From Rhodothermus sp. (GTDB lineage: Bacteria > Bacteroidota > Rhodothermia > Rhodothermales > Rhodothermaceae): a stretch of DNA of 64,000 nucleotides. This document shows, piece after piece, positions 3,469-62,105 of the stretch. Numbering within the stretch: position 1 is the first letter of the stretch; the number at the start of each line of letters is the position of its first letter. The notes under the pieces are model-generated. The model was not told where the DNA came from, ran no database searches, and was given only the letters and a program-made list of their open reading frames with translations. The stretch is from the NCBI GenBank assembly GCA_030950375.1, contig JAUZRN010000018.1, positions 18,629 to 82,628 on the forward strand. Direction: 5' to 3'. A program made the position numbers and the translations under genes.

Positions 3469-3943
3469 CCCCCCTCCGTCCTCCGGGCCAGCTCTCCCTT
3501 TGAGGGGGAGCAAAATTTTCTGGATCAGCACGTAACGCTTACTACAGCGTGATGGCCAGCTTTCTGGCAGAGCTTCTTCGTTGCGTCCCCCCCTCCCCGC
3601 TGGGAAGGGGCAACCATCGCTGCCGAATTAAGCTAACCGTCTTGTCTTCAGCGCAACGTAAGCCCAGAAAAACACCCCTCCGTCGCTTCGCAACAGCTCC
3701 CCCTATAAGGGGGGAGCAGATTCTTTGAATTTTACAGCAGTTGCTGCCGACGTCCTCCGGCAGTATATCCGGAGGCGGGAGCAGATTCTTTGAATTTTAC
3801 AGCAGTGCCTGCACCAACGCCACGCATTTCTCGAACGCCGACGCTGACACCGGCTTTCAAGTTCGGAAAAGGCCAATCCATCCTAAGTCCCAAGCAAGAC
3901 CTTCTTCTTTGACTCCCCCTCCGAGGAGGAGGTCGGGGGGGCT
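3469..3943. repeat. Hairpin-repeat array A (REP/REPIN-like, alternating orientation)
   Basis: Units CCCCTCMGTC..CAGCTCYCCYT-n-AGGGRGAGC at 3469-3511 and 3675-3717, inverted related hairpins at 3585-3611 and 3912-3943, and a degenerate unit near 3750-3782. Confidence 0.8.
3712..3806 (+). repeat. 30-bp exact direct repeat inside array A
   Basis: gggagcagattctttgaattttacagcagt occurs at 3712-3741 and 3777-3806. Confidence 0.9.
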
Positions 3944-4050
3944 TACTCTCCATCCGCAACACCTCTGAGGTCCATCACCCCCTCCTTGAAGAGCCTTTGC
4001 CGTTTTTTTCCTTTCGCAACCTTTCACGAAACCCAACCGCCAGACCAATC

Positions 4051-4074
4051 ATTTACTTGTTTAAACAAGTAAAT
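4051..4074. promoter_or_regulatory. Perfect 24-bp palindrome upstream of wrbA, putative operator
   Basis: ATTTACTTGTTT|AAACAAGTAAAT, AT-rich, ending about 30 bp before the wrbA start. Confidence 0.6.
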
Positions 4075-4103
4075 CCTCATTCACCTTCAAACCAGCGTGG
4101 TCC

Positions 4104-4739
4104 ATGATGGAAAAGACGCGCGTGCTGGTGCTGTACTACAGCATGTACGGTCACCTTGAGGTCCTGGCCCGTGAAGTAGCGGCCGGTGCGGCCGAAGTAG
4201 AAGGCGTTGAAGTGGTTGTCAAACGCGTGCCTGAACTGATTCCGGAAGAGCAGGCACGTCAGATCGGTGTCAAGCTGGATCAGGACGCGCCGGTCGCCAC
4301 GGTAGAAGAGCTTCCCGAATACGATGCGATTATTGTGGGCACGCCCACGCGCTTTGGCAACATGGCGGCCCAGATGCGCAACTTCTGGGATCAGACCGGC
4401 CCGCTCTGGGCAAAGGGTGCGCTGATCGGCAAGGTAGGCAGCGTGTTTACCGCCACGGCCACCCAGCATGGAGGACACGAAAGCACGATACTTTCCGTCC
4501 ACACCACATTCCTCCATCATGGAATGATTGTCGTTGGCCTTCCTTACAGCTGCGCCGAGCTCATGCAAATCGATGAGGTGGCCGGGGGGTCGCCCTATGG
4601 CGCCGGCACCATTACCGGTGGCGATGGTAAACGCATGCCGTCGGACGTAGAGCGGCGCATTGCGCGCTTCCAGGGACGCTACGTGGCCGAAATTGCCCGC
4701 CAGCTCAAAATCGGGCGGTTGCAGGCGCAGGCCGCCTGA
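4104..4739 (+). CDS. wrbA: NAD(P)H:quinone oxidoreductase WrbA
   Basis: Motifs [38 protein letters not shown] and GGSPYGA. Confidence 0.96.
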
Positions 4740-4763
4740 ATCCAGCAGGTTTGCTTACGCCTG

Positions 4764-4794
4764 GCCCGGTCGGCCTCTCCGGCCGGGCTTTTTT
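4764..4794 (+). terminator. Rho-independent terminator after wrbA
   Basis: Stem gcccggtcgg/ccggccgggc followed by a T6 tract. Confidence 0.8.
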
Positions 4795-5230
4795 GTATGC
4801 GTTTGCGAGAAGATAAACGGGACGCACTGAACCGGTCGATGCGGCTGCTGCGGTTAGGGCAGAGTGCTGCCCGGTCCTCTTCGGATCCTTCGGCCCGGCC
4901 ACGTCGAACAGGCATCGATCGGTGCTCCAACGTTCCGCGTCCATGCGCTCGGCCATCTACAGATTTTGCCTCTCGTAGCTGACCGACAGTCTCAGCGGAC
5001 AGGCCCGGCGCAGGGCATCCGGATGACGCAACGCGTCTTACCAGAAGCGACCGGACGTTTTCAGGAGCCAGCGTTGCATCGCAACGCTAAGCGTGCCGTG
5101 GCGAATGGACCGAAAAAAAAAGGGCAGTGCGTCGGCTTTCTTCAGCTATGCGGCCTCTCCCTCTTCCCCTTCTTTCTGCCGATCGCTGTATATTGTGCCG
5201 TTCGTATGACCAGATCGCAGGGGTGTTGCC

Positions 5231-7147
5231 ATGAAGAAGCGTTTGCGTTTGTTGCTGCTGGGATTGCTGCTCGGAGAAGGGCTGGCGGCGCAGCCTACCG
5301 CTTTTGCCCCGCTGGAGCTACCGGCTCCTAACGTCTATCGCACAGCTTCGGGGGAGCCTGGCCCGGACTACTGGCAGCAGCGCGTCGATTACGCCATCCG
5401 AGTAACGCTCGATACGACGTCGCACCGAATCACCGGCTCCGAGACGATCACCTACACAAACAACGCCCCGGTAGCCCTGCAGGAACTCTGGCTACAGCTG
5501 GATCAGAATCTGTTTGCTGCAGGCAGCCTGGGCGATGCCCTGATCGAACCTGGCTCGCGCTGGCGAGGCGCTTTCGAGGAGGGCGGCTTTCGTATTACCC
5601 GGGTCGAAGTGGTGCAGAACGGCCGCCGCTATGTGCCACACTACCTGATCGACGATACCCGTATGCGCATCGATCTGGACGAACCCCTGCCTGCCCGCGG
5701 CGGCCAGTTACAACTGGAGCTGGATTTCAGCTTCGTTGTGCCGGCTTACGGCGCCGACCGCATGGGCCGCCTGCGTGTCGAACAGGGTATCGTCTATGAG
5801 ATCGCCCAGTGGTATCCGCGGCTGTACGTTTTTGACGACGTAAACGGCTGGAACGTAGCCCCTTACTTAGGTCAGGGCGAATTCTACCTGGAATATGGTG
5901 ATTTTGAAGTAGCAATCACGGTACCTCGCAACTTCATTGTGGTAGCTACAGGGGTGTTACAGAATCCGGACGAAGTACTGACGGCCACACAACGCACCCG
6001 GTTGGAACAGGCGCGGCGAAGTGCCGAAACGGTACACATCATCCGACCGGACGAAGTTGGCCGCTCGGAAACGCGTCCGGCCGGCGAAGGGCCACTGACC
6101 TGGCGTTTTCGGGCCGAAAATGTACGCGACTTCGCCTGGGCCGCCTCACAGGCCTTTATCTGGGATGCCGCCTCCTGGCGGGATGTGCTTGTGATGTCGG
6201 TCTATCCGAAAGAAGGGCTCGGCACACCTGAGCAACCAGGATGGGAACAGTCCACCCGTTACGCACGCCACAGCATTGCCCACTACTCGGAGATGTGGTA
6301 TCCCTACCCCTACCCCGTGGCAATCAACGTAGCGGGCATCGTGGGCGGCATGGAGTATCCGATGATCGTATTCTGTTCGGTACGAGCACGGGGCCAGGGC
6401 CTGTTTGGCGTAACCGACCACGAATTCGGCCACACCTGGTTCCCTATGATCGTGGGTAGTGATGAGCGGCGTTATGCCTGGCAGGATGAAGGCATCAACA
6501 CGTTCATCAACTATTACGCTAACATAGCCTTCTACGGCGAAAAGGCGGCACGCACGCGGCGTCTGCAGCCCGACTACATTGCGCAGCGCATGCAGGATTC
6601 TCTGGTGCATCAGCCGATCATGACTTATCCGGACCAGATTCGGCCGCAGGCGCTGGGCTTTGTCGCTTACCGCAAGCCTGGATTCGGGCTCCGGTTGCTC
6701 CGCGAATACATCCTGGGGCCGGAGCGCTTCGACCGTGCCTTCCGCACATACATTCGCCGCTGGGCCTTCAAACATCCGCAGCCAGCCGACTTCTTCCGCA
6801 CCATCGAAAACGTGGCTGGCGAAGATCTGGACTGGTTCTGGCGCGGCTGGTTCTACACAACCGACTTGCTCGACCAGGCCATCGACAGCGTCCGCGTGGC
6901 CGAAGGCCAGACGCGCCTGTACCTGCATAATCGCCAGGGGCTGGTCTTTCCGGTCGTCGTCGAAGCTACCTATGCCGATGGCCGGAAGGTCCGCTACCGT
7001 TTTCCTGTCGAGCTCTGGGCTACCGGTGCCCGTCAGACCGTTGAAATTCCGGGAGAAGCCATCCAGGCAGTTCTGGATCCAGACCAGCTACTCCCCGACA
7101 TAGATCGGACCAACAACGTCTGGCCTGTGCATACCTCCACCAAGTAG
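5231..7147 (+). CDS. Secreted M1-family metalloaminopeptidase
   Basis: Signal peptide, GGMEYP, and zinc motif HEFGH..18..DEG. Confidence 0.92.
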   Translation: MKKRLRLLLLGLLLGEGLAAQPTAFAPLELPAPNVYRTASGEPGPDYWQQRVDYAIRVTLDTTSHRITGSETITYTNNAPVALQELWLQLDQNLFAAGSLGDALIEPGSRWRGAFEEGGFRITRVEVVQNGRRYVPHYLIDDTRMRIDLDEPLPARGGQLQLELDFSFVVPAYGADRMGRLRVEQGIVYEIAQWYPRLYVFDDVNGWNVAPYLGQGEFYLEYGDFEVAITVPRNFIVVATGVLQNPDEVLTATQRTRLEQARRSAETVHIIRPDEVGRSETRPAGEGPLTWRFRAENVRDFAWAASQAFIWDAASWRDVLVMSVYPKEGLGTPEQPGWEQSTRYARHSIAHYSEMWYPYPYPVAINVAGIVGGMEYPMIVFCSVRARGQGLFGVTDHEFGHTWFPMIVGSDERRYAWQDEGINTFINYYANIAFYGEKAARTRRLQPDYIAQRMQDSLVHQPIMTYPDQIRPQALGFVAYRKPGFGLRLLREYILGPERFDRAFRTYIRRWAFKHPQPADFFRTIENVAGEDLDWFWRGWFYTTDLLDQAIDSVRVAEGQTRLYLHNRQGLVFPVVVEATYADGRKVRYRFPVELWATGARQTVEIPGEAIQAVLDPDQLLPDIDRTNNVWPVHTSTK

Positions 7148-7153
7148 AGACCG

Positions 7154-7182
7154 GGCGACTCCGTTCGGAGTCGCCTCTTTTT
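7154..7182 (+). terminator. Rho-independent terminator
   Basis: Stem ggcgactcc-gttc-ggagtcgcc followed by a T tract. Confidence 0.8.
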
Positions 7183-7219
7183 GTGGCATTACCTTAATAA
7201 AACAGCGGTATAGCAAACG

Positions 7220-9250: not shown

Positions 9251-9335
9251 TGGATGATCAAAGGATTGTGGCTAAAAAATCAACATTCGGCCAGCAAAAA
9301 TACGCGCTACCCTTTAGAAGCACAAATGCAGAGCG

Positions 9336-9848: not shown

Positions 9849-9878
9849 GGCTCGTGTGCTGTTCGCAAACGGTTTGCT

Positions 9879-22089: not shown

Positions 22090-22456
22090 GGGGATGAACA
22101 GGATTCGACGGGTGGTAAACGCACGGCAGGCTGCGTGCCGAGCTGCCCGGCATGCTCGTTAATCTCGCCGGGAAAAAGTAAGTGCGAACGACTACTCGTA
22201 CGCGATGGCGGCCTAATTCGCCCGCCATCTGTCTCCCGCGCAGCGCGTCCGCCCGCGCGCGGCGAGGCATCGTCTCAGGCGGACTGGCTGTAGCCGGTGC
22301 CGGCTGAACCGGCACAGCGAGATACGCATCAGCCTGGGTTCATGCCTGGCCTTGCCGGCCGGCATACGGCATGAACGACAACGAATAGGCCGGCTACGCA
22401 CGTAGACGCCTGACCGGGCGGCCATCCGGACGCGGGTTCGATTCCCGCCATCTCCA
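22090..22456 (+). ncRNA. ssrA: tmRNA
   Basis: 5' GGGGATGAACAGGATTCGAC pairs with 3' CATCTCC-A (G3-U wobble), T-arm GGGTTCGATTCCC, and internal tag ORF ANDYSYAMAA* at 22184-22216. Confidence 0.97.
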
Positions 22457-22462
22457 CAATCC

Positions 22463-29986: not shown

Positions 29987-30520
29987 TCAACGTAGAGACG
30001 TATCGGCAAATCGACGTCCCAGCTCGGCACAAAGCTGCTCCAGATAGTGCTGATCGGTCGCATTGAAAGCAGCCGGTTCGTCCGAGTCAACGTCCAGCAC
30101 GGCGAGTAGACGACCGTCGGGCGTCAGCACTGGAACGACGATTTCAGATTGCGTGGTTGAGGAGCACGCAATGTGATCGGGAAACTGATGTACGTCGGGC
30201 ACGAGCTGGGTCTGCCGCGTGCGGGCGGCGGCACCGCACACCCCTCGACTGAAAGGGATGCGCAGACATCCGTGCGTGCCCTGGTAGGGCCCTACAATAA
30301 GCAGATCGTCTGAAACGGCCCGGTAGAAACCCGTCCAGTGATAATAGTCAAAGGCATGATGCAGCGCACAGGCTACCGTTGCCATGGCGGCGATCCAGTC
30401 CGTCTCGCCTTCAAGCAGCGCATCGATCTGTCGGAGCACGGCTTCATAATGCCGGACTCGCTCTTTGACGCCGGCGTTAACTGAAAGTGGCGACAAAATC
30501 GATAGCGGCTCTGTCATCAC
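29987..30520 (-). CDS. msrC: GAF-domain free methionine-R-sulfoxide reductase
   Basis: Motifs WTGFY, GPYQGTHGCLRIPFSRGVCG, HIACSSTTQSEIVVP and LDVDS. Confidence 0.88.
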   Translation of the reverse strand: MMTEPLSILSPLSVNAGVKERVRHYEAVLRQIDALLEGETDWIAAMATVACALHHAFDYYHWTGFYRAVSDDLLIVGPYQGTHGCLRIPFSRGVCGAAARTRQTQLVPDVHQFPDHIACSSTTQSEIVVPVLTPDGRLLAVLDVDSDEPAAFNATDQHYLEQLCAELGRRFADTSLR

Positions 30521-30943
30521 TGGGAGCGCTCGTTTTAATGGCGTAACAGGAGCTCCCTTCTACGCCAGGTCGCGGTAGAAGATGCCTGACACCACACTTC
30601 TCAGGGCTGGATTTGTACAGTCTCCCCCGGGCGACCACTAAGCATGCACCCTGGCTTCAATGCAGCAACGGCCCCGAACTGTAGCGCAGGCAAAGCGCTT
30701 TCTGTTGAATCTGTTCATCCCCGAAAAAAGTTCGGCCATAACGGTCACTGTTCCTTACGTCAGCTTCCTCAAGCCAATGTCCCGTCTCCAAACCGGTGGA
30801 GCAGCTCTCTCTACATACATGAGGGAGCAAAATGCTTGGGGAGGCTCATGGCAAGGCTATCTTGGCCGAAATTGCCGCATCCGGCACAGGCTCGGAACAG
30901 CAAGCACTACCGCAAAACTCATCCTTCATTGCTCAAGTCTTCC

Positions 30944-31372
30944 GCCCCTTCCCATCAAGAAGGGAGACAGGCAGAGGGGCTCTACCATCTTCATTGCTAC
31001 CGCCCCATACGCTGGCAACCTGTTTCATCACCCCTTCAGTCACTTCGCGACAGCTCCCCCTCGAGGGAGAGCAAAACACCAGACCGGCACGGCACGGCGC
31101 ATCCCAGCGCTTGTGCCAGAGACAAGGCAACGCTCTGTGCTTGAGTCCCCCCTCTCCACAGGGGAGGGGTCAAACCCACTCCCTCCAATTGGGCTGCCGG
31201 CTTTTCTGATACTCAACTGCGCAGCCAGAAAGCCCCCCCTTAGGCCTCCGGCCAGCTCTTCCTACAAGGGGGCACAAAATTTTCTGGATCAGCACATAAC
31301 GCTTACACTGACGTGATCACCACATTTTTGGCAGAGCCTCTTCCTTACGTTCCCCCTCCCCGGGAAATGGGC
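30944..31372. repeat. Hairpin-repeat array B (5 units, alternating orientation)
   Basis: Reverse 30944-30983, forward 31031-31072, reverse 31145-31170, forward 31233-31274, reverse 31351-31372. Segment 31233-31372 is clearly homologous to 3469-3611. Confidence 0.8.
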
Positions 31373-31796
31373 ATCACTCAACCCCTGTCGCTGCTGTCCC
31401 ATACGCTGACAGCCTGCCTGAACTAAATCCCCCTTCAAGCCCTTGCGGATCAGCTCCTCCTACGCTGCAAACAGTCGCGCCGGAGCTGGTGTGGCAGATG
31501 GCACCTCCTGAGCAGGTTGGCTGGGGTTCGATCCGCTTCGAGGCAGACCGATTCACTGGCTAAACCATGGAGATGCTTGCTCGGTGTTTCCTCTCCCGTG
31601 CCGAGTAAAAGACCAGGCATTATCAAGCCATGCCGCTATCTGCAGCCCCCTACAAAACACGGCGGGTTTGGTCCTGGCGCATTAAAGGGGACTTTTAGCG
31701 CAGAGGGCTCTACCCAGGTCAGCTATTTCCAACGAAAGAGCCTCTGTTTTGCAACGCCAGGCCCTGTTCGCAAGCAGTTACAATCGGCTTCCGTCT

Positions 31797-49200: not shown

Positions 49201-51229
49201 ACTCTATGCCGGTATTACAGCGCGCCTGGGGATCGAAGTCGATCTGTTCTTTGCCAGCGGTCGCTTTGATATCTTCAATGCGGCTGTAGGAGCCACACTG
49301 GGCGGGGGACTCCCCAATCCGACCTATGCCAGCGGAGCTATTTCGGGACGTTATAGCATTCTGGGAGGCGCCGTCAAAGGCACCTTCCGGTATGATTTCG
49401 ATATTGGCGACGTCTGTAAGCCGCTCCCTCCCTCCCCGCTTGAAGGCATCGAGCTGATCACCGATCTGCGTCCGCGGGATGGAGAAAGAGACGTCGATGT
49501 CTTCACCGAGCCAGCCGCTGCCTTCAGTGCCGATCTGGATCGTCCCTTTGTGATGAAAGACGCAGAGGGCCGGCCTCATATTTACCGGCTGCGTACAGAA
49601 GGCATCGTGCTGCGCAAAGATAATGAACGCGGGCCTATCGTCCGAGGTCGCAATGTGGTAACCCCCGAAGGCGACGGCGTCTATTTCCAGCCTGATGAGC
49701 CGCTGGAGTCTTATGCCTGGTACTGGGCCCAGGTAAACGTCTACGCCGAAGAGCTCATTGGCGGACGCGTGGTTGGCCAGCGACGGGTCGGCGACGAGAT
49801 CGTCTACGATGTGGCTGGCGGTCGCTGGGAACCTGTGCGCAATGCCCGGGGTGAGCTCATTCAGGAAACCCGAAGCGTCCGTTTCCAGGCGGGCGTCCGT
49901 CCTGAACAGATTCGCCCGGAGCACGTCCTCTACAGCTATCCGCGCAACCGTCAGCGCTTCTTCCTGCAGGACATGTGTGATCCCGGGCGCATTTATCTGT
50001 CGGAAAACTATCAGTACCTGGCTGAAAATGCAGATATCCTGGTTCGATTCACGCCGGTAGAAGGCGGCGGCACCCCCATCACCGTCGAGGGGCAGCTCTC
50101 CCGAGGTGCTATAACGTTCCCCATTCCGGATCTACAACCAGCCACTTCCTACGTGCTGCAGGTGATTCGGCGTGAGCGCCCCCCGGTTGCCCTGACTGGT
50201 TTTGTGACCGCCTACGCAGCGGAAGCAGCTCGAACGGAGTCGCCACCTCGAACGGACGAAACCGCCACAGAACTTGATGTGCAACTGAGTCCGTCGGTAG
50301 CAGCGCAGGCCAGTCAACCCCGGCTGTTCGAACTTGCACTGCAGTGGCGGCAGCTACGCGGTACGCTGGCTCAGCTGCGGGTACGCACGCTCCCCCGTCC
50401 ACGCGTACAGCCCGGAGAAACGCAGCTGTACCTGTACTATTTCCGCACGAGCCGCTATCGGACGTTGCAGGAAAAATTCGCGCAGCTATCTACCACCAGT
50501 GTGTACCAGTTTGAGCGTGGCCGTCTCTTTGGCGCACCTGTGGAAATGCATGACTTCCAAGTAACCATCACCTGGGCCGATGAGGGCTTCGAGCGCTACG
50601 ACCTCGAGCGACAACACCTGCAGGGCAGACGCTGGCGCGAGGCGCTGCTGACCTACGGCATCAACTGGCAGGACGACTGGATGCGTCGTTTTGCACGGCC
50701 TTACATCTATGAACCTTTAAATATCCTGCGTCGCCGGGGCATCTCAGCCATTTCGTTCTACCATATGGCACCGCGCACAGCCCTTGAACTGATCCGCCGG
50801 CAGAGTCTGCTGGAAAGCCCGCTCCAGGACAGCGAACTCATGCCCCCTCCTTCTGTCGAGGAGCGGGTAGCCCGTGCCAGCACTCCCAAAGGCATCCTTT
50901 CCTGGTACTCCAGACAGTCTACTATTCGCATTCCGCCCCCGCCTCCTCCGCAACTGGTCTTCCGGTACCGATTCCCCACGCTGGCGTATCTGGATCATCG
51001 GATAGTGCAGAATCAGGTGGCCGCGCTGGTCAGTACCGATCGCTGGCGCTCGCTCTCTGAAGAGGACCGACGCCGACTCTGGCTGGCGGGCTTCTCCTCG
51101 TTTGTACGCCCCTATGGCCGGCTGTCCATCTGGTTTGGCTATCCCACCTGCGAGATGCTCGACGTAGGCATTCCAGGGGTAGAACTGTTCTTTGAGACCG
51201 GCAATCGGCCACCCCGAAACTTCCGTTAA
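43259..51229 (+). CDS. 2656-aa secreted multidomain protein (TANFOR-like N-terminus, Ig/FN3-like domains, long Gly/aromatic beta-rich core)
   Basis: Signal peptide (AQA|Q); VQVNILIRRP..IQVQVRN..DYEFC N-domain; PPELISP..FSW and TYYWRV Ig-like motifs; FYGFGGGIYYRM core; no YPNP-type CTD. The TANFOR resemblance is from memory, not a search. Confidence 0.72.
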   Translation: MKRVSLVLLGLWLGLLPAQAQENLVQVNILIRRPTAMPRSLDSWQRDPSLIQVQVRNTSSRPFADLRFSFVIRESSRGEILRARDGHPAQPSFTLGPFESRTFTWDQLIAESAVQIARPFREEVVRDGIPEGDYEFCATILDFSVSPPQEVGSTGALCAIFQVVEPDPPELISPPDDETLITDYPVFSWAFTPPSGVSGVTYQLTIWPIYAGQTPVDASRHNRRLFATELTTTTYRYGPGDPALLTDRLDPRAIGYVWQVQSFLDGQPYGRDQGRGRGVSQLATIWLPERATAPETPLLVRTLTPEVLLTPASRRQPVRFLLENISGQPLTVYRFRTRWQTPTGDRSPEASEGDPLPEGPVRLDPGERYTVQFTLRPPEDPDYFEDVITRFGDGTSLTFPIAFTFFGEQHERAFQTESDRPVQLTYRIRPVAPLRVQLLTSFIRLTPDAPRQPVELRLENLGDQPLTVTRFRTTWYPPDDRPPESPEGADGDPLPEGDVMLEPGATHTVRFYLNFSRSPFERLVRELGDGRSMSFQIAFLFFARQSDGRILEAPATPRLNAELTLGESLRILAIHPAHQDTLPWLPQLLVIRWVPFNNSYRGVTFEVTVQEEGTGRVWTNTRRLNWPRGPLAITPGREIYRASMHIVNATGRPPELVDWANEFRPGRRYQWTVSATFRNPDGSTETVRSEPFTFVHGMIAPELGVPANNATFAAGESIAFTWTPRLSPRALSPDVLAIARGEAAMFFEGTTTHRARLQVATNPDFSSENLILEQPFEFSFTETDYADVLTEQSWRPEHRWRPGTYYWRVVWLDEDDRPYSASPLRQFTIGETTFAVRNYQPADGAVINELSTPFYIRTTRPLDPARLRSGWLEIRRLTRDDESLRDVFSNPDRLVARLDITRLEPHPEEPNVFQVYTGTPPAPYVLTSPEAAQFVWIVSLNLNNEGTPELPALAESSPTRFRLREPSAACLAACEEPLPSNRTLSTEPASAFVNRQVQIGKFFLRITEAEGTGSNLSGRGIIRVTLGSTFNLRVRFENLQINTDNQVVAGEAFAEADGVVPDEWATRFERFVPDTARARRIRDVIRTGRKLASLLGLSTEPVTLPIGLDHVVEGTSWVLAIVGIRFQPTRASLNALMDVPMPFLETGRLALGVRDVCINPRGLAGAFRLALERSLQFTLRRSPDLILRVLGEADTEAGETGTGAAWDCTGFQELQLALQFEFPREWFVPINEAGTDRGDRARATFRFATRSMDGWLISGNMDRARITGTDFIFEAADIVYDNATDRNPSDLVFPEGYEGPRDNSWTGWFIRNATFFLPSQFGSFEDPSARLSFGVQNVLIDGTGLTLVAQANNLLNLDTNPGSLDGWAFSIEQIRAEWVSSSFREGRMQGQIRIPIGEPALQYTALLQSAEAFEAERRAEEGESAETARRDEASDQPALYYTFRIEPPETFRATLFEAAQLQLQPTSRIEITNRPLENCFGRTRSAEFQAYACLNGTLTLAGDLGGIPLSFRGVQFENFGISSRTPYFNAGTWSWASPPHYLGGYGPTAVAPVQESTSMGFPVTVEDLGLEVGTRDGDPAAGLRFELAVHLGSDGASLSARTTLTVWGRLQRPPRAPMRPAFAGVELSALCLGGSISGVVSVGEDSCLEFYRDDPTYGNGFAGTLNVSFLESVSVSASGRFGEVEGFNYWYIDGLVTLGASGGIPIGTTGMAFYGFGGGIYYRMRQENLPDPQTLTGGTRTVRYVPDRNVTLGLRAATVIGTSGRPEPFNADVTLEVAFNSGGGLNRIILRGDAYMLVSATDRPENPPITGSVTIDMNFAERTFDATFQARVLLRTGGVTAVEGRGDVQLHFAPRGWFLRVGRPTPEADRMRLSVIALTQVNGYLWVGNWPEVPRMPDPPPPAPPIVRADFTADLTGRAFLFGASTGFEFSGQFLIFYGELRAFMGFDLALIDYGRDAMCTLEDGRTMTGIGINGWYAQGQLYAGITARLGIEVDLFFASGRFDIFNAAVGATLGGGLPNPTYASGAISGRYSILGGAVKGTFRYDFDIGDVCKPLPPSPLEGIELITDLRPRDGERDVDVFTEPAAAFSADLDRPFVMKDAEGRPHIYRLRTEGIVLRKDNERGPIVRGRNVVTPEGDGVYFQPDEPLESYAWYWAQVNVYAEELIGGRVVGQRRVGDEIVYDVAGGRWEPVRNARGELIQETRSVRFQAGVRPEQIRPEHVLYSYPRNRQRFFLQDMCDPGRIYLSENYQYLAENADILVRFTPVEGGGTPITVEGQLSRGAITFPIPDLQPATSYVLQVIRRERPPVALTGFVTAYAAEAARTESPPRTDETATELDVQLSPSVAAQASQPRLFELALQWRQLRGTLAQLRVRTLPRPRVQPGETQLYLYYFRTSRYRTLQEKFAQLSTTSVYQFERGRLFGAPVEMHDFQVTITWADEGFERYDLERQHLQGRRWREALLTYGINWQDDWMRRFARPYIYEPLNILRRRGISAISFYHMAPRTALELIRRQSLLESPLQDSELMPPPSVEERVARASTPKGILSWYSRQSTIRIPPPPPPQLVFRYRFPTLAYLDHRIVQNQVAALVSTDRWRSLSEEDRRRLWLAGFSSFVRPYGRLSIWFGYPTCEMLDVGIPGVELFFETGNRPPRNFR
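44147..44962 (+). repeat. Tandem duplication of a 136-aa domain within the giant protein
   Basis: Units start at 44147 and 44555: RQPVRFLLENISGQPLTVYRFRT..GDPLPEG vs RQPVELRLENLGDQPLTVTRFRT..GDPLPEG. Confidence 0.88.
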
Positions 51230-51240
51230 CCGAACCGGCT

Positions 51241-53361
51241 ATGCGTACGCGACATTTCTGCATGGGCTATCTGCTGCTGGGCCTGTGGAGTATCGCCGGC
51301 CTGCCGGCACGGTCTCAGCAACCCGACACCTTGACCGCCGATACCCTCCGGGTTCCTTCGCTGGCCGTGCAGGCCTGGTCTGACGGGGCCCGCGTGGTAC
51401 TCCGATGGGCACCCGCTTCGTTTCTCGCCTGGGATCATGGCAATGCCGTGGGTTACCATGTGGAACGCACACGTATCAATCCCCAGGAACCCCCGTCCGC
51501 CCCGCTCACCTACGACCGACTGACGTCCCAACCCCTTCGCCCCTGGCCGCTGGAAACCTGGCGTCAACGCATTCCGAATCCTGAAGCACGTCCGCAGGCC
51601 GCCATCGCCGCTCAGATGCTCTATGGTACCCCTGCGCCCATTCAGGCCCGTAACCCCTTCGAAGCGGCCCAGCTACGCGCAGCCGAGCAGGAAAATCGCT
51701 TCAGCTTTGCCCTGTTTGCGGCCGATCTCGACTCCCTGGCTGCCGAAGGGCTGGGCCTGCGTTACGAAGATGCCACGGTTGAACCTGGCGCCACGTACAT
51801 CTATCGGGTTTTTGCAGCGGAACCCCATCCCTCGCTGCGTCTCGACACGGCCTACGTGGTGGTAACCGTGAACCCAACACCACCCGCCACGCTTGACTTC
51901 GCGATCGAAGTGGAAGCTGGAGACGGTCAGCTGCGGCTCTGCTGGGATCCCCGGCTGGCTACTTATGCCTTCACCGCCTACGTGGTCGAGCGATCCGAAG
52001 ACGGCCAGCAGTATCGCCTCATGACAGAAACGCCTCTGGTCCAGCTCGAAACCAACGCCACACTGGCCGAAAATCGCAGTCTCTGTTTTACCGATACGAC
52101 TACCGTCAATTACCGGCGCTACTTCTATCGGATCTATGGCATCGATGCCTTTGCCCATCGCTCACGCCCCCTTGAAGTCATTGGAATGTCCCGAGACAGG
52201 ACCCCACCTCCAGCCCCGGTGCTTGAAGCAACCGAACACGTGCGCGAAAGCACAGTACGATTGCGCTGGCGTCTCGATAATCCTTCGCCAGATCTGGAAG
52301 GGTTCTTTATTGGCATCTCCAACAGCCCGGACGGTCCCTTTGAGATTGGCGAGCAGCTTCCGCCTTCAGCCCGTGAGGCGACCGACAGCCGTGCAATCTC
52401 CGGCATCAATAACTATTACATTGTATTGGCGGTTGACACGGCAGGGAACCTCTCCTCTTCCATGCCGCACTACGTGCATCTGATCGACTCGATTCCACCT
52501 GCGCCTCCAACCGGACTGATCGCTCAAGTGGACACCACAGGCATCCTGACCCTTCGCTGGCGATCCAATCAAGAGCCTGACCTGCTGGGCTACCGCGTCT
52601 ATCGGGCCAACCAGCTCGACCATACCTTCACGCTGGAAACCGGCTTCCCCCTGACCGACACCGTCTTTGTGGACACCCTCAGCCTGAATACGCTGACCGA
52701 GGCCATCTATTACCGGGTGGTAGCCCTGGACCGCAATTACAATCCTTCGGCGCCTTCCGAACCGGTACAGGTACTTCTCCCCGATCAGATACCGCCCGTT
52801 TCTCCCCTCTTTACCCGCGTCACACCAACCGACTCCAGCATTATCCTCCACTGGATTCCCAGCAGTAGCCCGGACGTGGTGCGCGTCTACCTTTACCGCA
52901 AACGCCCCAATGAAATCCTCTGGCATGAAATCGCTGTACTGGACCCAACCACCAGCCGCTACGAAGACACCACGGTTCAGCCGGAACGCCGCTATTACTA
53001 CACCCTGCGTGCGGAAGACGACGCCGGAAACCTCTCCCGACCAGCTCCCCCGGTCCAGGCCCGTCCGTATGTCAAAACCTTACGTCCCCCTGTTACCCGC
53101 CTGCGGGCACGCTATGATGCCCGCCAACGGGCCATCCAGCTCACCTGGTCCTACACCCATGCCCGACCGCACTGGTTTGTCGTCTTTCGAGCCGTGGAAG
53201 ACCAGCCTCTCCGTCGTTATCAATCGGCCGGTCGGTTTACACAATTTCTGGATATGGACCTGATCGGCCCCGGCACCTACCGCTATGCCGTACAGGTTTA
53301 TTTTGAAGACGGAGGCATTTCGCCCCTTAGCGAACCGGTCACGGTGGTTGTAGAAGAGTAG
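51241..53361 (+). CDS. Secreted fibronectin type III multi-domain protein (706 aa)
   Basis: Signal peptide and about six FN3-like modules (VVLRW..YIYRV, LRLCW..YFYRI, VRLRW..YYIV, LTLRW..GYRVYR..YYRVVA, ILHW..YYYTL, QLTW..YRYAV); no T9SS CTD. Confidence 0.85.
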   Translation: MRTRHFCMGYLLLGLWSIAGLPARSQQPDTLTADTLRVPSLAVQAWSDGARVVLRWAPASFLAWDHGNAVGYHVERTRINPQEPPSAPLTYDRLTSQPLRPWPLETWRQRIPNPEARPQAAIAAQMLYGTPAPIQARNPFEAAQLRAAEQENRFSFALFAADLDSLAAEGLGLRYEDATVEPGATYIYRVFAAEPHPSLRLDTAYVVVTVNPTPPATLDFAIEVEAGDGQLRLCWDPRLATYAFTAYVVERSEDGQQYRLMTETPLVQLETNATLAENRSLCFTDTTTVNYRRYFYRIYGIDAFAHRSRPLEVIGMSRDRTPPPAPVLEATEHVRESTVRLRWRLDNPSPDLEGFFIGISNSPDGPFEIGEQLPPSAREATDSRAISGINNYYIVLAVDTAGNLSSSMPHYVHLIDSIPPAPPTGLIAQVDTTGILTLRWRSNQEPDLLGYRVYRANQLDHTFTLETGFPLTDTVFVDTLSLNTLTEAIYYRVVALDRNYNPSAPSEPVQVLLPDQIPPVSPLFTRVTPTDSSIILHWIPSSSPDVVRVYLYRKRPNEILWHEIAVLDPTTSRYEDTTVQPERRYYYTLRAEDDAGNLSRPAPPVQARPYVKTLRPPVTRLRARYDARQRAIQLTWSYTHARPHWFVVFRAVEDQPLRRYQSAGRFTQFLDMDLIGPGTYRYAVQVYFEDGGISPLSEPVTVVVEE

Positions 53362-54525: not shown

Positions 54526-54759
54526 GCTTACGGTCTTTCAAATGGATTGGCGTAATCGGGTATCTGTCTGCAATGATGCCTGACGGCTATGGCGCGCTCG
54601 AAATACCTGGCCCTTACCGACTGCGCCCCTGCTGCTACCTGAGACGCCCCGAATAAGCCAGAAGGTACCGCTCATCATCCCGGGTTCCTGTAGTGAAAAC
54701 CGCTCCGCATGAGCTCGTAACAAGGTAACTGCTGCAAGCTGCGGCATAAGCCCATGCGT

Positions 54760-57011: not shown

Positions 57012-57014
57012 GAT

Positions 57015-59250: not shown

Positions 59251-59271
59251 GTTCAGCGGAATTTTACGTTT

Positions 59272-60333
59272 TCAACGTACGGACGAAGCGCGAACCAACA
59301 GCTCGCAGGGTACCACAATAATATGCTGTCCTCGGGCATACGGCCGGTATGCTGGATCTGGCGTCATCCGTTCGATCAGATGACGCATGGCCAGCTCGCC
59401 CAGCTGCTCCTTGAAAACCCGCACGCTGGTGAGCGGCACTGGGGCCTGTGCGGCGCTCTGTACGTCGTCGAACCCCACCAGCGCTATATCATCAGGCACG
59501 CGCAGACCGTTTTGTAACAGCGTCTCCATCACCCCCAGTGCCAGCGCATCGTTGGCACAGAAAGCAGCGGTAGGACGCTCCGCCAGCGCCAGCAGACGCT
59601 GTCCCAGTAACTGTCCCGTAGCTCGCGTAGGTTCAGCTTCCGGTTCGATAAGCACCAGTGCCGGATCCATCGACCGCCCGATCCGCCCCAGTGCGATCCG
59701 ATAGCCCTCTAACCGATGGGCAATGCTCGGATGCTGAAGGTCCGCCCCGATAAAAGCGATCCGCTGGTGTCCCTGCCGAATCAAATGCTCGACGGCCGCT
59801 CGGGCCCCTCCCTGGTTATCAATCACCACCGCCGGCAACCCCTCAGCCTCATAGTCGATGAGCACGGCAGGCAGCTTCATCGACCGCACCTCCTCCAGAA
59901 ACGCATCACTGACCTTACCTGCAATCAGCAGACCGTCAACGCTCCGTTCTCGCAGAAAACGCGGTGTATGCTCACCCCTGCGATAGGCCCGAGGAATCGT
60001 GGTCAACAGCACATAGAGGTTGTGCAGCCGTGCTTCAAATTCGGTTCCAAGAAAAATATAAGTATAAAACGGTTCACTTCGGGTAAAATGGTCTTCACGA
60101 AGCACAAAACCTACATTGCCAGTGCGTTGTAACGATAGATCACGCGCCGCCCGCAATGGCACATACCCCAGCTCCCTGGCAGCCTGCAACACACGCCGAC
60201 GTGTCGCCTCGCTAACCTTCCCTTTGTTGTTGAGCACCAACGAGACGGTCGAGATAGACACACCAGCAACCCGCGCGACCTCTCGAATGGTACATCGTGA
60301 AGGGCCCATGCAGATACAGGTTTTATTGTTCAC
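59272..60333 (-). CDS. LacI-family transcriptional regulator; true start probably 60309
   Basis: HTH TIREVARVAGVSISTVSLVLN..LGYVP, and ligand domain CANDALALG and GFDD. Confidence 0.95.
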   Translation of the reverse strand: MNNKTCICMGPSRCTIREVARVAGVSISTVSLVLNNKGKVSEATRRRVLQAARELGYVPLRAARDLSLQRTGNVGFVLREDHFTRSEPFYTYIFLGTEFEARLHNLYVLLTTIPRAYRRGEHTPRFLRERSVDGLLIAGKVSDAFLEEVRSMKLPAVLIDYEAEGLPAVVIDNQGGARAAVEHLIRQGHQRIAFIGADLQHPSIAHRLEGYRIALGRIGRSMDPALVLIEPEAEPTRATGQLLGQRLLALAERPTAAFCANDALALGVMETLLQNGLRVPDDIALVGFDDVQSAAQAPVPLTSVRVFKEQLGELAMRHLIERMTPDPAYRPYARGQHIIVVPCELLVRASSVR

Positions 60334-60345
60334 TAAATCGATTTA
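60334..60345. promoter_or_regulatory. Putative LacI operator
   Basis: Perfect CG-centred palindrome TAAATC|GATTTA about 25 bp upstream of the likely lacI start. Confidence 0.6.
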
Positions 60346-61253
60346 CTTAAAATTTACCCTATTTTATGTAATCCTGTCAAGTTTTCTCCTCTTTTTGTCC
60401 GGACGCCCTGAAGCCCCCTTTCCCTACAACAAGCACTGTGCTCAACATGCACTTATTTTAACGGTTGCGCAGGAAAGCGCATGCTCCTCTCTACTACGAG
60501 GGCTATGTTTTGGCGGGCCAGTCCCGAAGCGATAGATGCTCGCCCCGCCCGCCTATCGCTGCCTCTATACCCTCTATGTACACGGCATCTCGACCGCTGC
60601 AGGTCGAGGATGGATTCAAGCCCTCTGTACCCCATACCGCAACAAAAACGCGCCTTTCTGCCCCCATTGTGCAATCAAAAAAGCCGATTCGGGAACTTGA
60701 CAAGCTGTGTGTGCCAATTAGAAAGGGTCGTGCCGACCTGCGTCCCCACCGCCTGACCGAACCCATCAGACGCGCCTCGGCTCTTCTCAAAGGCAATGGG
60801 TTATGAAACACGATGCTTTTCTGAGCCCTGCCTCAGCCATCTTTTTTTTCTCACGTACAGCAATTGCGAAACGCCGCCTCTAAAAGCACGCCAGCCAGTT
60901 ATTCAGATCATGCTTTCCAGCCCTTCCTATCTATGCAAAGGAATGAATATCGCAAGTGATCAAACGGAACATTCTCAAAGACCAACTTTGGGCAGCTTAT
61001 CAGCAAGAAGATGCAGAACAGTTAGTTCCCTTTGAAACTTACTCCAGCAGATTTAAAATTATCTGTTTACACACAGGAAATATGCTATACAATAACGCGG
61101 GCTCACATAAGGCAGCGCTACTGGTTTGCACCAAGGTGGATCCGGGTTATATATTGGCTTTGTGCGTATTGAGCATCATACTCCTTCTGTGAAGAAGAAT
61201 GGGTTGATACTGCTTGCCAGGGCCGACCTAACGAATAAACGTAGCCTGTAACT

Positions 61254-61496
61254 ATGATCACCAAAATCTTGCCTTTGCTACTGATTCTTTTACTTTATCC
61301 TCTGGTCTTTGCATGGAAAAGGATGCCGCCACTCTTTGCTTTGCTTATCGTAGGCGGACTGGTGCTGTTCTTTCTGGCCGTTGCCTTCGTGGAAGAACAG
61401 AACAGATATACTCATCTACTTTTTGCTACGATTGCTCTGGGAGCAGGCGTACGATACCTGAAAAGATATCGTCCGCTTCAGGCATCCTCAGATTAA
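61254..61496 (+). CDS. Small membrane protein (80 aa, about 3 TM)
   Basis: ATG start, three hydrophobic segments and a basic C-tail. Confidence 0.65.
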   Translation: MITKILPLLLILLLYPLVFAWKRMPPLFALLIVGGLVLFFLAVAFVEEQNRYTHLLFATIALGAGVRYLKRYRPLQASSD

Positions 61497-61651
61497 TGCT
61501 GGCCGCTACACCGTCAAACATCCGAGAGACCAGACGGGCTTCGTTGAAAAGACACGCTCTGTGGTGGGGAGGAGGCCAACCTTTTATTCTCGCCCGAAAT
61601 AGTTGCCATGCTTGAACGAACCATAGCGCTGCTTCGGCAGACACTTCCGCG

Positions 61652-62105
61652 GGTCCTCCGGACCAGCTCTCCCTTTAAGGGAGAGCCATCTAAGCCGGTT
61701 CGGCAGTGCAAATGGTAGCATAGCAGTAAACTACCCGAACAATGTGATCGATCATGCCGTCATCAAGGAGCATGGAAGTGTTTTTATCAGGTTCCCCCTC
61801 CCCCGGGGAGGGGGACAGGGGGAGGGGCTCTCCGTTCCCTATCGCTATCGTCCCAGACACCGTTGCGCTGACCAAGCCCTCAGTCGCTCTCGCGACAGCT
61901 CTCCCTACGAGAAGAAGCAGATTTCCTCGTTTGTAACGCTACTGCCAGAGCGCTGGCAAAGCTTCTGCTTTACATGCTCCCCTCCGAGGAGGGAACAAGC
62001 GAAAGGGCCTGCCTCCAACACCACTGCCGTCCCGTAGGCCAGGCACTCTTATCAGGCAACAACGTCCCCTCAGTCCTTCGGACAGCTTTCCCTTGTAGAG
62101 GAAGC
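61652..62105. repeat. Hairpin-repeat array C (5 units, alternating orientation)
   Basis: Forward 61652-61686, reverse 61792-61831, forward 61877-61919, reverse 61976-62009, forward 62066-62105. Confidence 0.8.

Follow-up and report, generated by a model that had tools for sequence, protein, structure and literature searches.

The closest described counterparts of the repeats analysed here are the REP/BIME elements of Enterobacteria and Pseudomonas, which are short GC-rich palindromic intergenic units that also occur as inverted REPIN doublets. Their partner, RAYT (TnpA-REP), is an HUH Y1 transposase whose gene is bracketed by inverted units and is single-copy and syntenic within a lineage. 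In BIME-2, organized as (Y-s-Z2-l)n, two alternating unit types are joined by a few conserved linkers. E. coli BIMEs bind gyrase and IHF.

Three clusters in a 64,000-nucleotide (64-kb) stretch of a Rhodothermus genome, hereafter the window, resemble these systems in their short GC-rich palindromic intergenic units, in their two alternating unit types and in their few linkers, and inverted doublets are also present in the wider family (the Caulobacter A/B doublets). While similar in build, the two systems differ in three respects. First, the repeated module, M, lacks the GTAG/CGTC tag of REPs and has a mirror-repeat G-run in addition and, in many copies, a GNA mini-hairpin. Second, the gene associated with the module in other genomes encodes a PD-(D/E)XK Vsr-like DUF559 protein, whereas the partner of REPs is an HUH Y1 transposase; like RAYT, the DUF559 gene is bracketed by inverted units and is single-copy and syntenic in one lineage. 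Third, unlike the species-specific REPs, the module has a core sequence conserved between phyla. We consider it probable, with moderate confidence, that the three clusters are non-autonomous, partly decayed, BIME-like mosaic arrays of this DUF559-associated DNA module. A previous sequence-only reading had offered two interpretations, a modular non-autonomous repeat system or structured-RNA arrays; the first is supported, including its alternating orientation and common linkers, and the second is disfavoured.

Three intergenic arrays in the window

The clusters of alternating hairpin units reported previously are real. By direct reading and with a covariance model, the three gene-free intergenic arrays resolve into F units, seven in total and + strand throughout, interleaved with inverted relatives, the R units, likewise seven in total; the orders are those originally described (Table 1). 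The model, R1, was trained on 20 copies from other genomes only, and in the 64 kb it finds exactly the seven F units (E < 1e-3, all +), with no credible match in the window beyond the three clusters. A pattern search of the window with CAGCTYYYCCY-N2-5-RGRRRRRGC gave six matches, all on the + strand and all within the clusters, compared with none in 100 shuffles. The R units, sited between F units, consist of a C-arm, a loop and a G-arm, with or without ACA and a second G-run.

Table 1. Arrays and repeat units in the window, with neighbouring genes
Position	Strand	Feature	Evidence and setting
3467..3942	+	Array 1, F-R-F-(partial f)-R	Direct reading, R1; divergent neighbours MpaB-like 2488-3324 (-) and flavodoxin-like 4104-4739 (+)
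3467..3514	+	F unit, M(-) orientation: C-run, mini-hairpin, main hairpin	R1 32.1 bits, E 1.5e-6
3586..3611	+	Truncated R unit, hairpin TCCCCCCCTCCCC-GCTG-GGAAGGGG, lacking the second G-run	Direct reading; weak partial R2 match
3672..3720	+	F unit	R1 39.3 bits, E 2e-8
3741..3812	+	Partial F-like unit (3741-3790) and local duplicate of F tail/linker	Repeat family D17
3913..3942	+	Degenerate R unit	Direct reading, weak model match
30943..31489	+	Array 2, R-F-R-F-R and a marginal F	Direct reading, R1; within a ~1.28 kb non-coding insertion, downstream of recN 31797-33533 (-) and upstream of a GAF gene 29987-30520 (-)
30943..30979	+	Degenerate R unit, ACA spacer and second G-run retained	Direct reading, repeat family D10
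31028..31075	+	F unit, best preserved of all	R1 54.6 bits, E 2.6e-12
31146..31169	+	R unit, hairpin alone	Direct reading, weak R2 match
31232..31276	+	F unit	R1 22.1 bits, E 5e-4
31350..31372	+	Degenerate R unit	Direct reading
31427..31489	+	Marginal decayed F-like unit	R1 12 bits, E 0.2
61641..62108	+	Array 3, F-R-F-R-F	Direct reading, R1; in a gap of 2.5 kb, gene-poor and lower in GC, with a LacI-family gene 59272-60333 (-) on one side and an FtsX-like gene 62877-63974 (-) on the other
61641..61689	+	F unit, C-run lost	R1 31.6 bits
61792..61827	+	Intact R unit (R6): CCCCCTCCCC/GGGGAGGGGG hairpin, ACA spacer, mirror G-run GGGGGAGGGG	R2, full-length match, 28 bits, E 6e-6
61872..61921	+	F unit, main stem broken	R1 25.4 bits
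61977..61996	+	Degenerate R unit	Direct reading
62062..62108	+	F unit	R1 32.6 bits

The units are joined by a few recurring types of linker, a feature also of E. coli BIMEs, and the shared spacers noted before are confirmed: 3486-3597 agrees with 31250-31361 at 79% over 112 nt, 30961-31010 with 61809-61858 at 74%, and 3708-3747 with 3773-3812 at 93%. Regular repeats with intervening sequence are also a feature of CRISPR arrays; that reading was rejected on the alternating unit orientation, on 'spacers' that are themselves repeat families and on the absence of cas genes or a leader in the window ORFs examined. Many of the window copies are degraded, with just three perfect stems of at least 7 bp left and R1 scores of 22-55 bits vs. 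57-66 bits in a related MAG. Since its copies are partly decayed, the family may now be inactive in this Rhodothermus genome.

Module anatomy and stem covariation

The F core reads CCCCCTCAG, a mini-hairpin, then CAGCTCCCCCT-loop-AGGGGGAGC, and the conserved 5′ part of the consensus is CCCCCTCAGTC. As claimed earlier, the consensus has no GTAG/CGTC tag, CGTC being found just in window copies that read CCGTC. In module M, a hairpin made of a pyrimidine arm, loop and purine arm leads through a turn into a G-run that mirrors the purine arm. The turn is of two kinds, one 2-4 nt long, the other a very stable mini-hairpin whose loop is GNA. R units have the short kind and are in M(+) orientation, whereas F units have the mini-hairpin kind and are in M(-) orientation. 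The mini-hairpin loop is TNC in 114 of 130 cases, i.e., GNA on the opposite strand, as in d(GCGAAGC)-type mini-hairpins.

In the F stems, 94.4% of cells are paired vs. 83.5% in shuffles, and double-change cells, the covariation check proposed with the original reading, number 161 vs. 40 in shuffles. One-sided changes such as G-U account for 2 of 1762 cells. The mirror repeat is perfect across the whole arm in 56 of 104 modules, compared with 12.6 ± 2.8 when tails are permuted, and a direct-repeat fit of arm and tail is seen in only 1 of 104 modules. The permutation statistics are inflated because copies inside one genome are related. At column pairs 23/27, 21/29 and 18/32 the covariation is of G-G or A-A type; at pair 20/30, 26 of 27 are A-T. 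The module structure is under selection. The strong covariation of the mini-hairpin with near-zero G-U pairs points to a DNA-type element rather than an RNA.

The purine arm and the mirror G-run fit a fold-back triplex. As in H-DNA/purine-motif triplex mirror repeats, they form a mirror repeat with A or T opposite A, matching the triplex rules G·G:C, A·A:T and T·A:T. Unlike in H-DNA, one and the same strand carries an inverted repeat fused to the mirror repeat, the whole is part of a dispersed repeat family, and the fold is a predicted one. Single-strand folds of the window copies were no better than shuffles (z -0.6 and -1.3).

The same evidence bears on the proposal that the arrays are tandem sRNA genes or another structured RNA, in which a C-rich, anti-Shine-Dalgarno-like CCCCUC would lie beside stable hairpins and each ~210-nt unit would be an independent transcript. 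The stems do covary, the unit length and tandem layout are like those of sRNA gene arrays, and copies of the Rhodothermus lineage have AAAATTTT after the F hairpin. However, G-U-type changes are nearly absent, the GNA loop rule and the mirror repeat are read on the strand opposite to F, and modules occur in both orientations. In addition, the A/T tail behind the F hairpin is absent in other phyla, the arrays are missing from close relatives, a search for consensus promoters and intrinsic terminators found none, and no Rfam family matches the repeats in scans of the window and of intact arrays in two other loci (L067/L107). We regard an RNA role as very unlikely.

Distribution and lineage-specific gain

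Loci with the F core number at least 120 and come from about nine bacterial groups, including Caulobacterales, Chloroflexota, Clostridia, Bifidobacterium, a gammaproteobacterial MAG, Planctomycetota, Bacteroidota and Rhodothermus, and R1 gave 237 matches in 765 kb. In related Rhodothermus MAGs, the intact unit of ~210 nt consists of R, linker a/b/c, F and linker x/y/z; these units are intergenic and high-copy, and MAG contigs often terminate in them. Gene-less singlets, doublets and arrays of the module are also present in other genomes. The gene-less doublets (~120-135 nt) have imperfect terminal inverted repeats and are related to a gene-bearing unit whose gene is not a DDE transposase; unlike plain terminal inverted repeats, their ends are internally structured modules. 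The Caulobacter A/B doublets are inverted module pairs, and they may correspond to the Caulobacter CIR repeats (Chen & Shapiro 2003, cited in PMC3372372), which are likewise intergenic, exceed 100 bp and contain internal inverted repeats.

Comparison of syntenic loci, which the sequence-only reading had proposed, covered two of the three arrays and found empty sites for both. The spacer orthologous to array 1 measures 183 nt in L122 vs. ~780 nt in the window; L122 and L123 have an empty site, and L121 has different modules there. At array 2, the orthologous sites of L213-L215 are empty, with a RecN-GAF spacer of 98 nt (L213) or 13 nt (L214/L215). No F or R copies were found in ~50 kb of sequence from relatives. 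Arrays 1 and 2 are, judging from these empty orthologous sites, lineage-specific insertions, and the comparison supports mobility, or at least lineage-specific gain. Target-site duplications and sharp insertion boundaries were not found; REP/BIME elements also lack target duplications.

These comparisons also bear on the view that the arrays are host-domesticated structural DNA, immobile now, whose cruciform-, triplex- or G-quadruplex-forming sites would act topologically, bind gyrase or nucleoid proteins, or insulate transcription, roles also proposed for BIMEs. Such a role, which is compatible with a selfish origin, is suggested by the combined mirror and inverted symmetry, which predicts non-B DNA, by the R unit, which is a canonical G4 motif (GGGGAGGGGGACAGGGGGAGGGG), by the position of array 1 between divergent promoters and by the binding of E. 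coli BIMEs to gyrase and IHF. However, the orthologous sites of relatives lack the arrays or differ in content at the same site, and the decay of the window copies argues against purifying selection in this genome, leaving this view improbable.

DUF559 genes flanked by modules

DUF559 proteins (Pfam PF04480) are Vsr-like PD-(D/E)XK nucleases with 3HRL as the closest solved structure and are, to our knowledge, little studied. The earlier statement that such hairpins flank DUF559 genes was borne out in other genomes. Loci containing F, 950 kb in total, hold two DUF559 ORFs, each with inverted modules on its two sides. In 80 metagenome DUF559 loci selected by protein similarity alone, the density of module-type hairpins is 5.24 per kb up to 200 nt from the gene vs. 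0.205 per kb farther off, a 25-fold enrichment; 58 of 75 loci have such a hairpin on the upstream side and 63 of 79 on the downstream side. Conversely, a model trained on DUF559-flanking modules only (R2) matches Rhodothermus R units full-length (E 4.5e-9 to 2e-7). Inverted modules and the small gene form compact units of ~420-540 bp, commonly as M(+)-gene-M(-), and as M(-)-gene-M(+) in Dehalococcoidia and Deinococcus. In Dehalococcoidia, all four syntenic orthologues are laid out F-gene-inverted F, in genomes with many solo F copies. Named isolates with a module-flanked gene include Azospirillum, Deinococcus, Synechocystis and Pseudanabaena.

The association, one of guilt by proximity, suggests an undescribed repeat-plus-nuclease partnership parallel to that of REP/BIME and RAYT. 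A DUF559 nuclease encoded now or once elsewhere in the genome, in line with the earlier inference of a nuclease acting from elsewhere, would recognise or cut the folded or palindromic module; repair or recombination would then copy modules into new intergenic sites, and local recombination between modules would enlarge and reshuffle the arrays. As stated previously, the window itself has no DUF559 gene (six-frame hmmsearch), and none was found in the ~120 kb of Rhodothermus sequence searched; thus, any cognate enzyme of this genome is putative.

Alternatively, the arrays could be classical REP/BIME elements moved by a RAYT encoded elsewhere, with DUF559 irrelevant to this genome. The alternating unit types, typed linkers and intergenic, high-copy units at which MAG contigs often end are what this would predict. 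However, the consensus lacks the tag, the module (a hairpin with a mirror G-run) is more than a simple imperfect palindrome, every case examined flanks DUF559 and never a Y1 gene, no recurrent neighbour gene appears among 120 F-core loci, and ten small window ORFs gave no Y1 transposase match, in agreement with the original reading. We give this alternative little credence.

A different role for DUF559 is that of a free-standing homing endonuclease gene parasitising existing inverted module pairs, while the modules spread otherwise, by some transposase, recombination or replication slippage. DUF559 is of the Vsr type in fold and catalytic residues, as are the Vsr mismatch endonuclease and I-Bth0305I-type EDxHD homing endonucleases, a family that includes selfish free-standing nuclease genes and proven homing endonucleases (PMC3239194, PMC3384342). 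Furthermore, DUF559 units are tiny and lack target duplications, gene-less doublets share their topology with gene-bearing units, and one locus (L208) holds a second, degraded DUF559 copy between modules. Module-flanked DUF559 genes differ from those of homing endonucleases in that they encode a minimal catalytic domain (~100-120 aa), lie outside introns and inteins, are bracketed by repeated palindromic modules that also occur gene-less, and have no known target site or homing event. Against a parasitic role, the gene in Dehalococcoidia occupies one syntenic locus at 75-94% identity, looks vertically inherited and is therefore not obviously mobile there; no same-site pair of loci with and without the gene was found, and no other candidate enzyme was seen beside the modules. 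We consider the parasite reading unlikely, though it has a real chance of being correct.

Several of the findings above count against the favoured partnership between module and nuclease, namely the lineage-dependent orientation of modules around the gene, the lack of target-site duplications and sharp boundaries, the single syntenic site of the Dehalococcoidia gene and the single-strand folds no better than shuffles. The relation between protein and repeat sequence also counts against it. The F-flanked DUF559 has its close homologues in Chloroflexota only, so recent co-transfer with the protein does not explain why F is the same in different phyla, and protein clade is weakly linked to arm sequence (55.0% vs. 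53.3% identity).

The arrays and their gain in Rhodothermus

Direct reading of all three window regions bears out the three clusters of hairpin repeats in alternating orientation that had been described by the sequence-only reading (see the table of coordinates). In the F unit, a C-run (CCCCTCMG) precedes a small hairpin (GTCGC-TTC-GCGAC or GTCC-TCC-GGAC); after an A comes a second hairpin (GCTCYCCCT-n3-AGGGRGAGC), to which the Rhodothermus lineage adds an A/T tail. A pattern of the second hairpin has six matches in the window, every one on the + strand, and matched none of 100 shuffles. Between the F units sit the R units, hairpins whose C-arm and G-arm enclose a 4-nt loop; the intact copy adds an ACA spacer and a second G-run after the G-arm. 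The stretches between units repeat as well, both between arrays and within array 1. A CRISPR-like reading was rejected because the "spacers" are themselves repeated and the unit orientation alternates. A terminator role for the flanking genes was rejected too, since the genes beside array 1 are divergent, with their starts facing it, and arrays 2 and 3 run counter to their neighbours.

Coordinates of features in the window and in loci from other genomes (R1 and R2 are covariance models described in the text; sequence identities come from a repeat finder)
Feature	Sequence	Position	Strand	Details
Array 1	window	3467-3942		flanks (Pfam): divergent MpaB-like and flavodoxin-like genes
Array 2	window	30943-31489		flanks (Pfam): recN and GAF gene, both - strand; includes marginal F 31427-31489
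Array 3	window	61641-62108		
Setting of array 3	window	60334-62876		2.5 kb, gene-poor, lowest GC of the window (0.51 vs ~0.59); otherwise only small ORFs without Pfam match
Small ORF near array 3 (example)	window	61254-61496		80-aa hydrophobic protein
Intact R unit	window	61792-61827		
Inter-unit match	window	3486-3597 vs 31250-31361		79% over 112 nt
Inter-unit match	window	30961-31010 vs 61809-61858		74%
Local duplication	window	3708-3747 / 3773-3812		93% identical
Non-array part of recN-GAF insertion	window	30521-30942 and 31490-31796		
F-like hairpin, very degraded	window	~30777-30831		R1, E 1.9
Mechanical ORF	window	30660-31316	+	218 aa, spans array 2
R2 match	window	24886-24928	-	full length, weak, E 0.011; within gene for a 1445-aa DUF11 / T9SS-sorted protein
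tmRNA gene	window	22090-22459	+	Rfam RF00023, 177 bits, full length
ORF without match	window	41608-43242		544 aa
ORF without Pfam match	window	43259-51229	+	2656 aa
Internal DNA repeats of the 2656-aa ORF	window	44201-44769		period ~410 nt, families D6 and D7
fn3-containing ORF	window	51241-53361		706 aa
F	L025	6491-6538		
DUF559 gene	L025	~6590-6889		
Inverted F	L025	6904-6953		
Tandem DUF559 genes	L208	1501-2387		139 aa and truncated 84 aa
F direct tandems	L075	6475-6580		
F direct tandems	L083	4184-4280		
Second Rhodothermus repeat	L029	2760-2880		
Second Rhodothermus repeat	L042	~2590-2650, 2900-2990	-	
Second Rhodothermus repeat	L213	5280-5300		GGCTTACTACAAGCGGGCG
Mini-hairpins	L021	3590-3640		

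Intact arrays are present in related Rhodothermus MAG contigs (L067, L107, L031, L056, L082, L061, L106 and L121), where the repeat unit of ~210 nt runs R, linker, F, linker. Here, R reads TCCCCCCTCCCC-n4-GGGGAGGGGG-ACA-GGGGGAGGGG, the linker after R is of about three types (55–65 nt), and the linker after F is of about three other types (65–75 nt). E. coli BIME-2 arrays join two kinds of palindromic unit, alternately oriented, through typed linkers, and the MAG arrays follow the same logic. Many of the MAG contigs terminate within arrays, as is expected of dispersed repeats.

Comparison of syntenic loci, which had been proposed as a check, reveals empty sites in relatives of the window, whose closest named relative is Rhodothermus profundi (RecN identity 92%). 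At the array 1 site, the flavodoxin–MpaB spacer measures 183 nt in L122 (GCA_900175145.1) versus ~780 nt in the window, a more than fourfold enlargement between divergent promoters, with conserved flanks recognisable on both sides; L123 likewise lacks array 1. In L121, whose MpaB is 81% identical, an array begins at the same left boundary but carries other linkers and modules. At the array 2 site, 1276 nt separate RecN from GAF in the window, ~13 times the 98 nt of the sister genome L213; in L214 and L215 the spacer is 13 nt. No F or R copies were found in ~50 kb of the array-free relatives. The empty sites and the differing content in relatives therefore indicate that the arrays were gained and are turning over, i.e., they are lineage-specific insertions gained at two sites, at a species divergence too great to fix the exact junctions.

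Within the recN–GAF insertion of ~1.28 kb, recognisable array 2 occupies only ~550 nt; the remainder is non-coding and may be older decayed array material. The mechanical ORF across array 2 illustrates that such arrays are a likely source of spurious "hypothetical proteins" with motifs like PQS..TAPP.GG. A second, unrelated repeat (TTTGTAGTAAGCCACGAAGGCG ... CTTACTACAAGC) occurs in other Rhodothermus, including the short RecN–GAF spacer of L213.

A cross-phylum hairpin family with DNA-type pairing

A degenerate F pattern was scanned over one genome per prokaryotic species and found at least 120 loci, against ~0.4 chance matches expected from its information content. Among the matches listed are Caulobacter, Phenylobacterium, Dehalococcoidia and other Chloroflexota, Clostridia MAGs, Bifidobacterium, a gammaproteobacterial MAG, Planctomycetota, Muribaculaceae, Robertkochia and Rhodothermus MAGs. 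The degenerate positions of the pattern prove near-invariant (CCCCCTCAGTC ... ACAGCTCCCCCT ... AGGGGGAGC), and at its fully free positions the mini-hairpin is completed every time. A covariance model and a wider copy count had been suggested for the repeat, and the model R1, trained on 20 copies with none from the window, finds 237 copies in 765 kb of examined loci. At E<1e-3, it recovers exactly seven F units in the window, plus one marginal copy. The window copies are more decayed, scoring 22–55 bits versus 57–66 bits in a related MAG, and only three perfect stems of at least 7 bp are left in them.

Rfam matched only the tmRNA of the window at the gathering threshold, leaving the repeats unmatched, as they also were at an E-value threshold on loci with intact arrays. 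A literature search by sequence string gave irrelevant matches only, these taxa go unmentioned in the REP catalogue paper, and one array queried against a plasmid collection had no match. Viral contigs gave only 4 F matches, so phages are no obvious vehicle. Among 1562 ORFs lying no more than 2.5 kb from F copies, all-against-all blastp yielded no recurrent gene beside solo F copies except common metabolic families. In rabbit-gut Clostridia MAGs (L075, L083 and L104), F forms head-to-tail direct tandems with a period of ~50 nt, and its orientation does not alternate.

Structured-RNA arrays had been offered as an alternative to a mobile repeat, and the stems do covary. In an alignment of 127 distinct copies, paired cells make up 94.4% versus 83.5% after shuffling, and 161 cells are changed on both sides versus 40. 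A caveat to these figures is that the alignment was fitted to the model, although the pattern search that first found the copies had left the mini-hairpin positions free. The mini-hairpin pair 16-35, for example, is GC in 52 copies, CG in 40 and AU in 32. One-sided departures from the commonest pair (G-U type) account for only 2 of 1762 cells. Wobble is usually tolerated in RNA helices but not in palindromes that have to pair on each of the two DNA strands; the F family is under selection for DNA-type pairing. Of 130 mini-hairpin loops, 114 are TNC (TTC 52, TCC 40, TGC 12, TAC 10), i.e., GNA on the opposite strand, and F units of the window have TTC, TCC or similar loops. Mini-hairpins of the GCGAAGC type with GNA loops are exceptionally stable structures of single-stranded DNA. 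No consensus promoter or intrinsic terminator was predicted in array 3, the A/T tail is absent from F copies outside Rhodothermus, and the folds give local hairpins only, with no long-range R–F stem. An sRNA or structured-RNA family is disfavoured by the near absence of G-U changes and by the lack of an Rfam match and, in array 3, of promoter or terminator signals. Judged from the sequences, the scarce G-U changes, the GNA loops, the missing promoter and terminator and the lineage-limited tail favour a DNA-level element.

DUF559 genes between modules across phyla

A six-frame motif scan of 950 kb of F-containing loci gave two DUF559-like ORFs (PF04480, E 2e-37 and 5e-36), both bracketed by inverted modules: the gene in L025 (Dehalococcoidia) lies between F and inverted F, and that in L021 (Caulobacter) has on each side a variant of this module that differs in sequence. 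Circularity was avoided with 80 metagenome loci picked by DUF559 protein similarity alone, in most of which inverted repeats surround the gene. The density of perfect pyrimidine-arm hairpins is 5.24 per kb up to 200 nt from the gene versus 0.205 per kb beyond, a 25-fold enrichment; 58 of 75 loci have such a hairpin upstream, and 63 of 79 have one downstream. The usual order is hairpin, turn, G-run, gene, C-run, turn, hairpin, and the whole unit spans only ~420–540 bp. These units and the gene-less doublets have TIR-like ends, and no target-site duplication was seen in a comparison that had no clean filled/empty site pair. Four Dehalococcoidia MAGs have orthologous DUF559 genes (75–94% identical) at one syntenic site, each between F and inverted F (the F type flanks DUF559 in L025, L208, L209 and L211), and the same genomes carry many solo F copies. 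The same bracketing is found in annotated isolate records of Azospirillum lipoferum, Deinococcus proteolyticus, Synechocystis sp. B12 and Pseudanabaena sp. The DUF559 association of such hairpins, raised in the sequence-only reading, thus holds across phyla in other genomes.

In L208 (Dehalococcoidia), two consecutive DUF559 genes, of which the second is degraded and followed by another F, have modules alternating before, between and after them, making this locus the gene-bearing counterpart of the alternating arrays.

Both Rhodothermus unit types have the layout of the DUF559-flanking modules. In the M(+) form, a hairpin of pyrimidine arm and purine arm leads into a turn and then a G-run; the M(-) form is its reverse complement. 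R is M(+) with a short turn and F is M(-) with a mini-hairpin as the turn, and both forms are found beside DUF559 genes; therefore, the R-linker-F topology corresponds to M(+)-DUF559-M(-) minus the gene. The model R2, trained on 27 modules that all flank DUF559 genes, matches R units of the Rhodothermus MAGs at full length (E 4.5e-9 to 2e-7) and the intact R unit of the window (E 6e-6), and has no match in array-free relatives. The cleanest gene-less form is found in Caulobacter, with 23 doublets of ~120–135 nt that combine type A (AGC arm, GTCGC mini-hairpin) and type B (AGG arm, GGCCC mini-hairpin) in either order. The window arrays look like ageing, gene-less members of this DUF559-associated family. 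A further R2 match, inside the DUF11 protein gene, is poor by eye and probably due to chance.

The G-run that follows the hairpin in DUF559-associated modules mirrors the purine arm and is neither its copy nor its complement, with A or T facing each A; both the R and the F units of Rhodothermus obey the same rule.

Purine arms and the G-runs that mirror them
Purine arm	G-run	Unit
GGGAGAGGG	GGGTGAGGG	
GGGGGAGGG	GGGTGGGGG	
GGGGGAAGG	GGATGGGGG	
GGGGGAGGA	AGGTGGGGG	
GGGAGAAGG	GGATGAGGG	
GGGGGAG	GAGGGGG	F
GGGGAGGGGG	GGGGGAGGGG	R

The mirror is perfect over the whole arm in 56 of 104 modules versus 12.6 +/- 2.8 (maximum 22) when tails are permuted, the modules being related copies of few classes, and a direct repeat fits only 1 of the 104. 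The bases opposite A are A in 93 cases, T in 86, G in 12 and C in 12. Covariation as G-G or A-A is seen at column pairs 23/27, 21/29 and 18/32 of the ungapped alignment, and 26 of 27 rows have A-T at column pair 20/30. Antiparallel purine-motif triplets are G*G:C, A*A:T and T*A:T, and the mirror pairs obey these rules. The M(+) strand could thus form a hairpin and lay a third strand on its purine arm, the short spacer or mini-hairpin forming the turn, and some module classes could form G-quadruplexes. The mirror rule predicts a defined non-B DNA fold that is testable.

A candidate REP/RAYT-like partnership

The arrays share with REP and BIME elements GC-rich imperfect palindromes of 20–40 nt that are intergenic and multi-copy, as well as mosaic arrays in which two unit types alternate with typed linkers. 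In contrast to these elements, the GTAG/CGTC terminal tag is missing from the consensus, whose 5' part is CCCCCTCAGTC; its absence, noted earlier for the window units, stands for the consensus, and CGTC appears only in window variants reading CCGTC. No Y1 (HUH) transposase was found in the small ORFs of the window or among the neighbours of the at least 120 F loci listed. Where a bracketed gene is seen between units, it is DUF559. The best-supported reading is a REP/RAYT-like partnership, in which a small nuclease gene would be kept between its own modules and gene-less modules are dispersed as singlets, doublets and arrays. The earlier proposal of a modular, non-autonomous repeat system thus survives together with its DUF559 lead; its RNA alternative is disfavoured. 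In such a partnership, DUF559 would bind or cut the module, this would drive module copying, and the Rhodothermus arrays would depend on such an enzyme.

Four observations count against this DUF559 reading. First, no DUF559 gene was found in the window or the other examined Rhodothermus sequence, no remnants of one lie within the arrays, and the best 120 of 4035 homologues of one DUF559 query (E<=1e-10) come from Chloroflexota and mixed taxa, none from Rhodothermus. Second, the module orientation relative to the gene differs by lineage. Third, the F-flanked DUF559 clade is confined to Chloroflexota among the matches listed. Fourth, protein clade and arm sequence are only weakly associated.

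We consider it possible, rather than probable, that DUF559 is the cognate enzyme of cross-phylum fold-back DNA modules (hairpins with a mirror-image third strand, the turn often being a GNA mini-hairpin). This would be a second, independent system of repeats plus domesticated nuclease, REP/RAYT-like but with a Vsr-like PD-(D/E)XK enzyme and triplex-capable DNA, of which the Rhodothermus arrays would be the BIME-like gene-less form. The cross-phylum module, its mirror-plus-inverted symmetry and the DUF559 bracketing seem undescribed and are testable; no paper tying DUF559 or Vsr to REP-like repeats was found in the openly accessible literature. DUF559 is 14-fold enriched among predicted programmed-inversion targets in one survey (PMC9881135), so the inverted repeats there were detected earlier but read differently. 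True homing endonucleases exist among the Vsr-like EDxHD proteins (PMC3384342). Caulobacter VsrA is a DUF559 protein that is SOS-induced and, in a methylase mutant, damages DNA, and the functionally linked methylase ScmA methylates YGCCGGCR (PMC12907096). Caulobacter mini-hairpins (L021; type-B modules) contain GCCGGC or GGCCC..GGGCC; the resemblance of GCCGGC to the ScmA site may be coincidence.

DUF559 is a large nuclease family of "unknown function". Its proteins number in the thousands, and their annotation goes no further than "endonuclease domain-containing" or "very-short-patch-repair endonuclease". The family would gain a testable function if the bracketing modules are its natural substrates. 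The proposal, if true, would also explain widespread GC-rich intergenic repeats, spurious ORFs and assembly breaks, and would provide a second example in which a nuclease and a short-repeat population are long-term partners.

Elsewhere in the window, the tmRNA gene is the sole Rfam match at the gathering threshold. The 2656-aa ORF is preceded by the 544-aa ORF and followed by the fn3-containing one, and its internal ~410-nt repeats suggest tandem protein domains.
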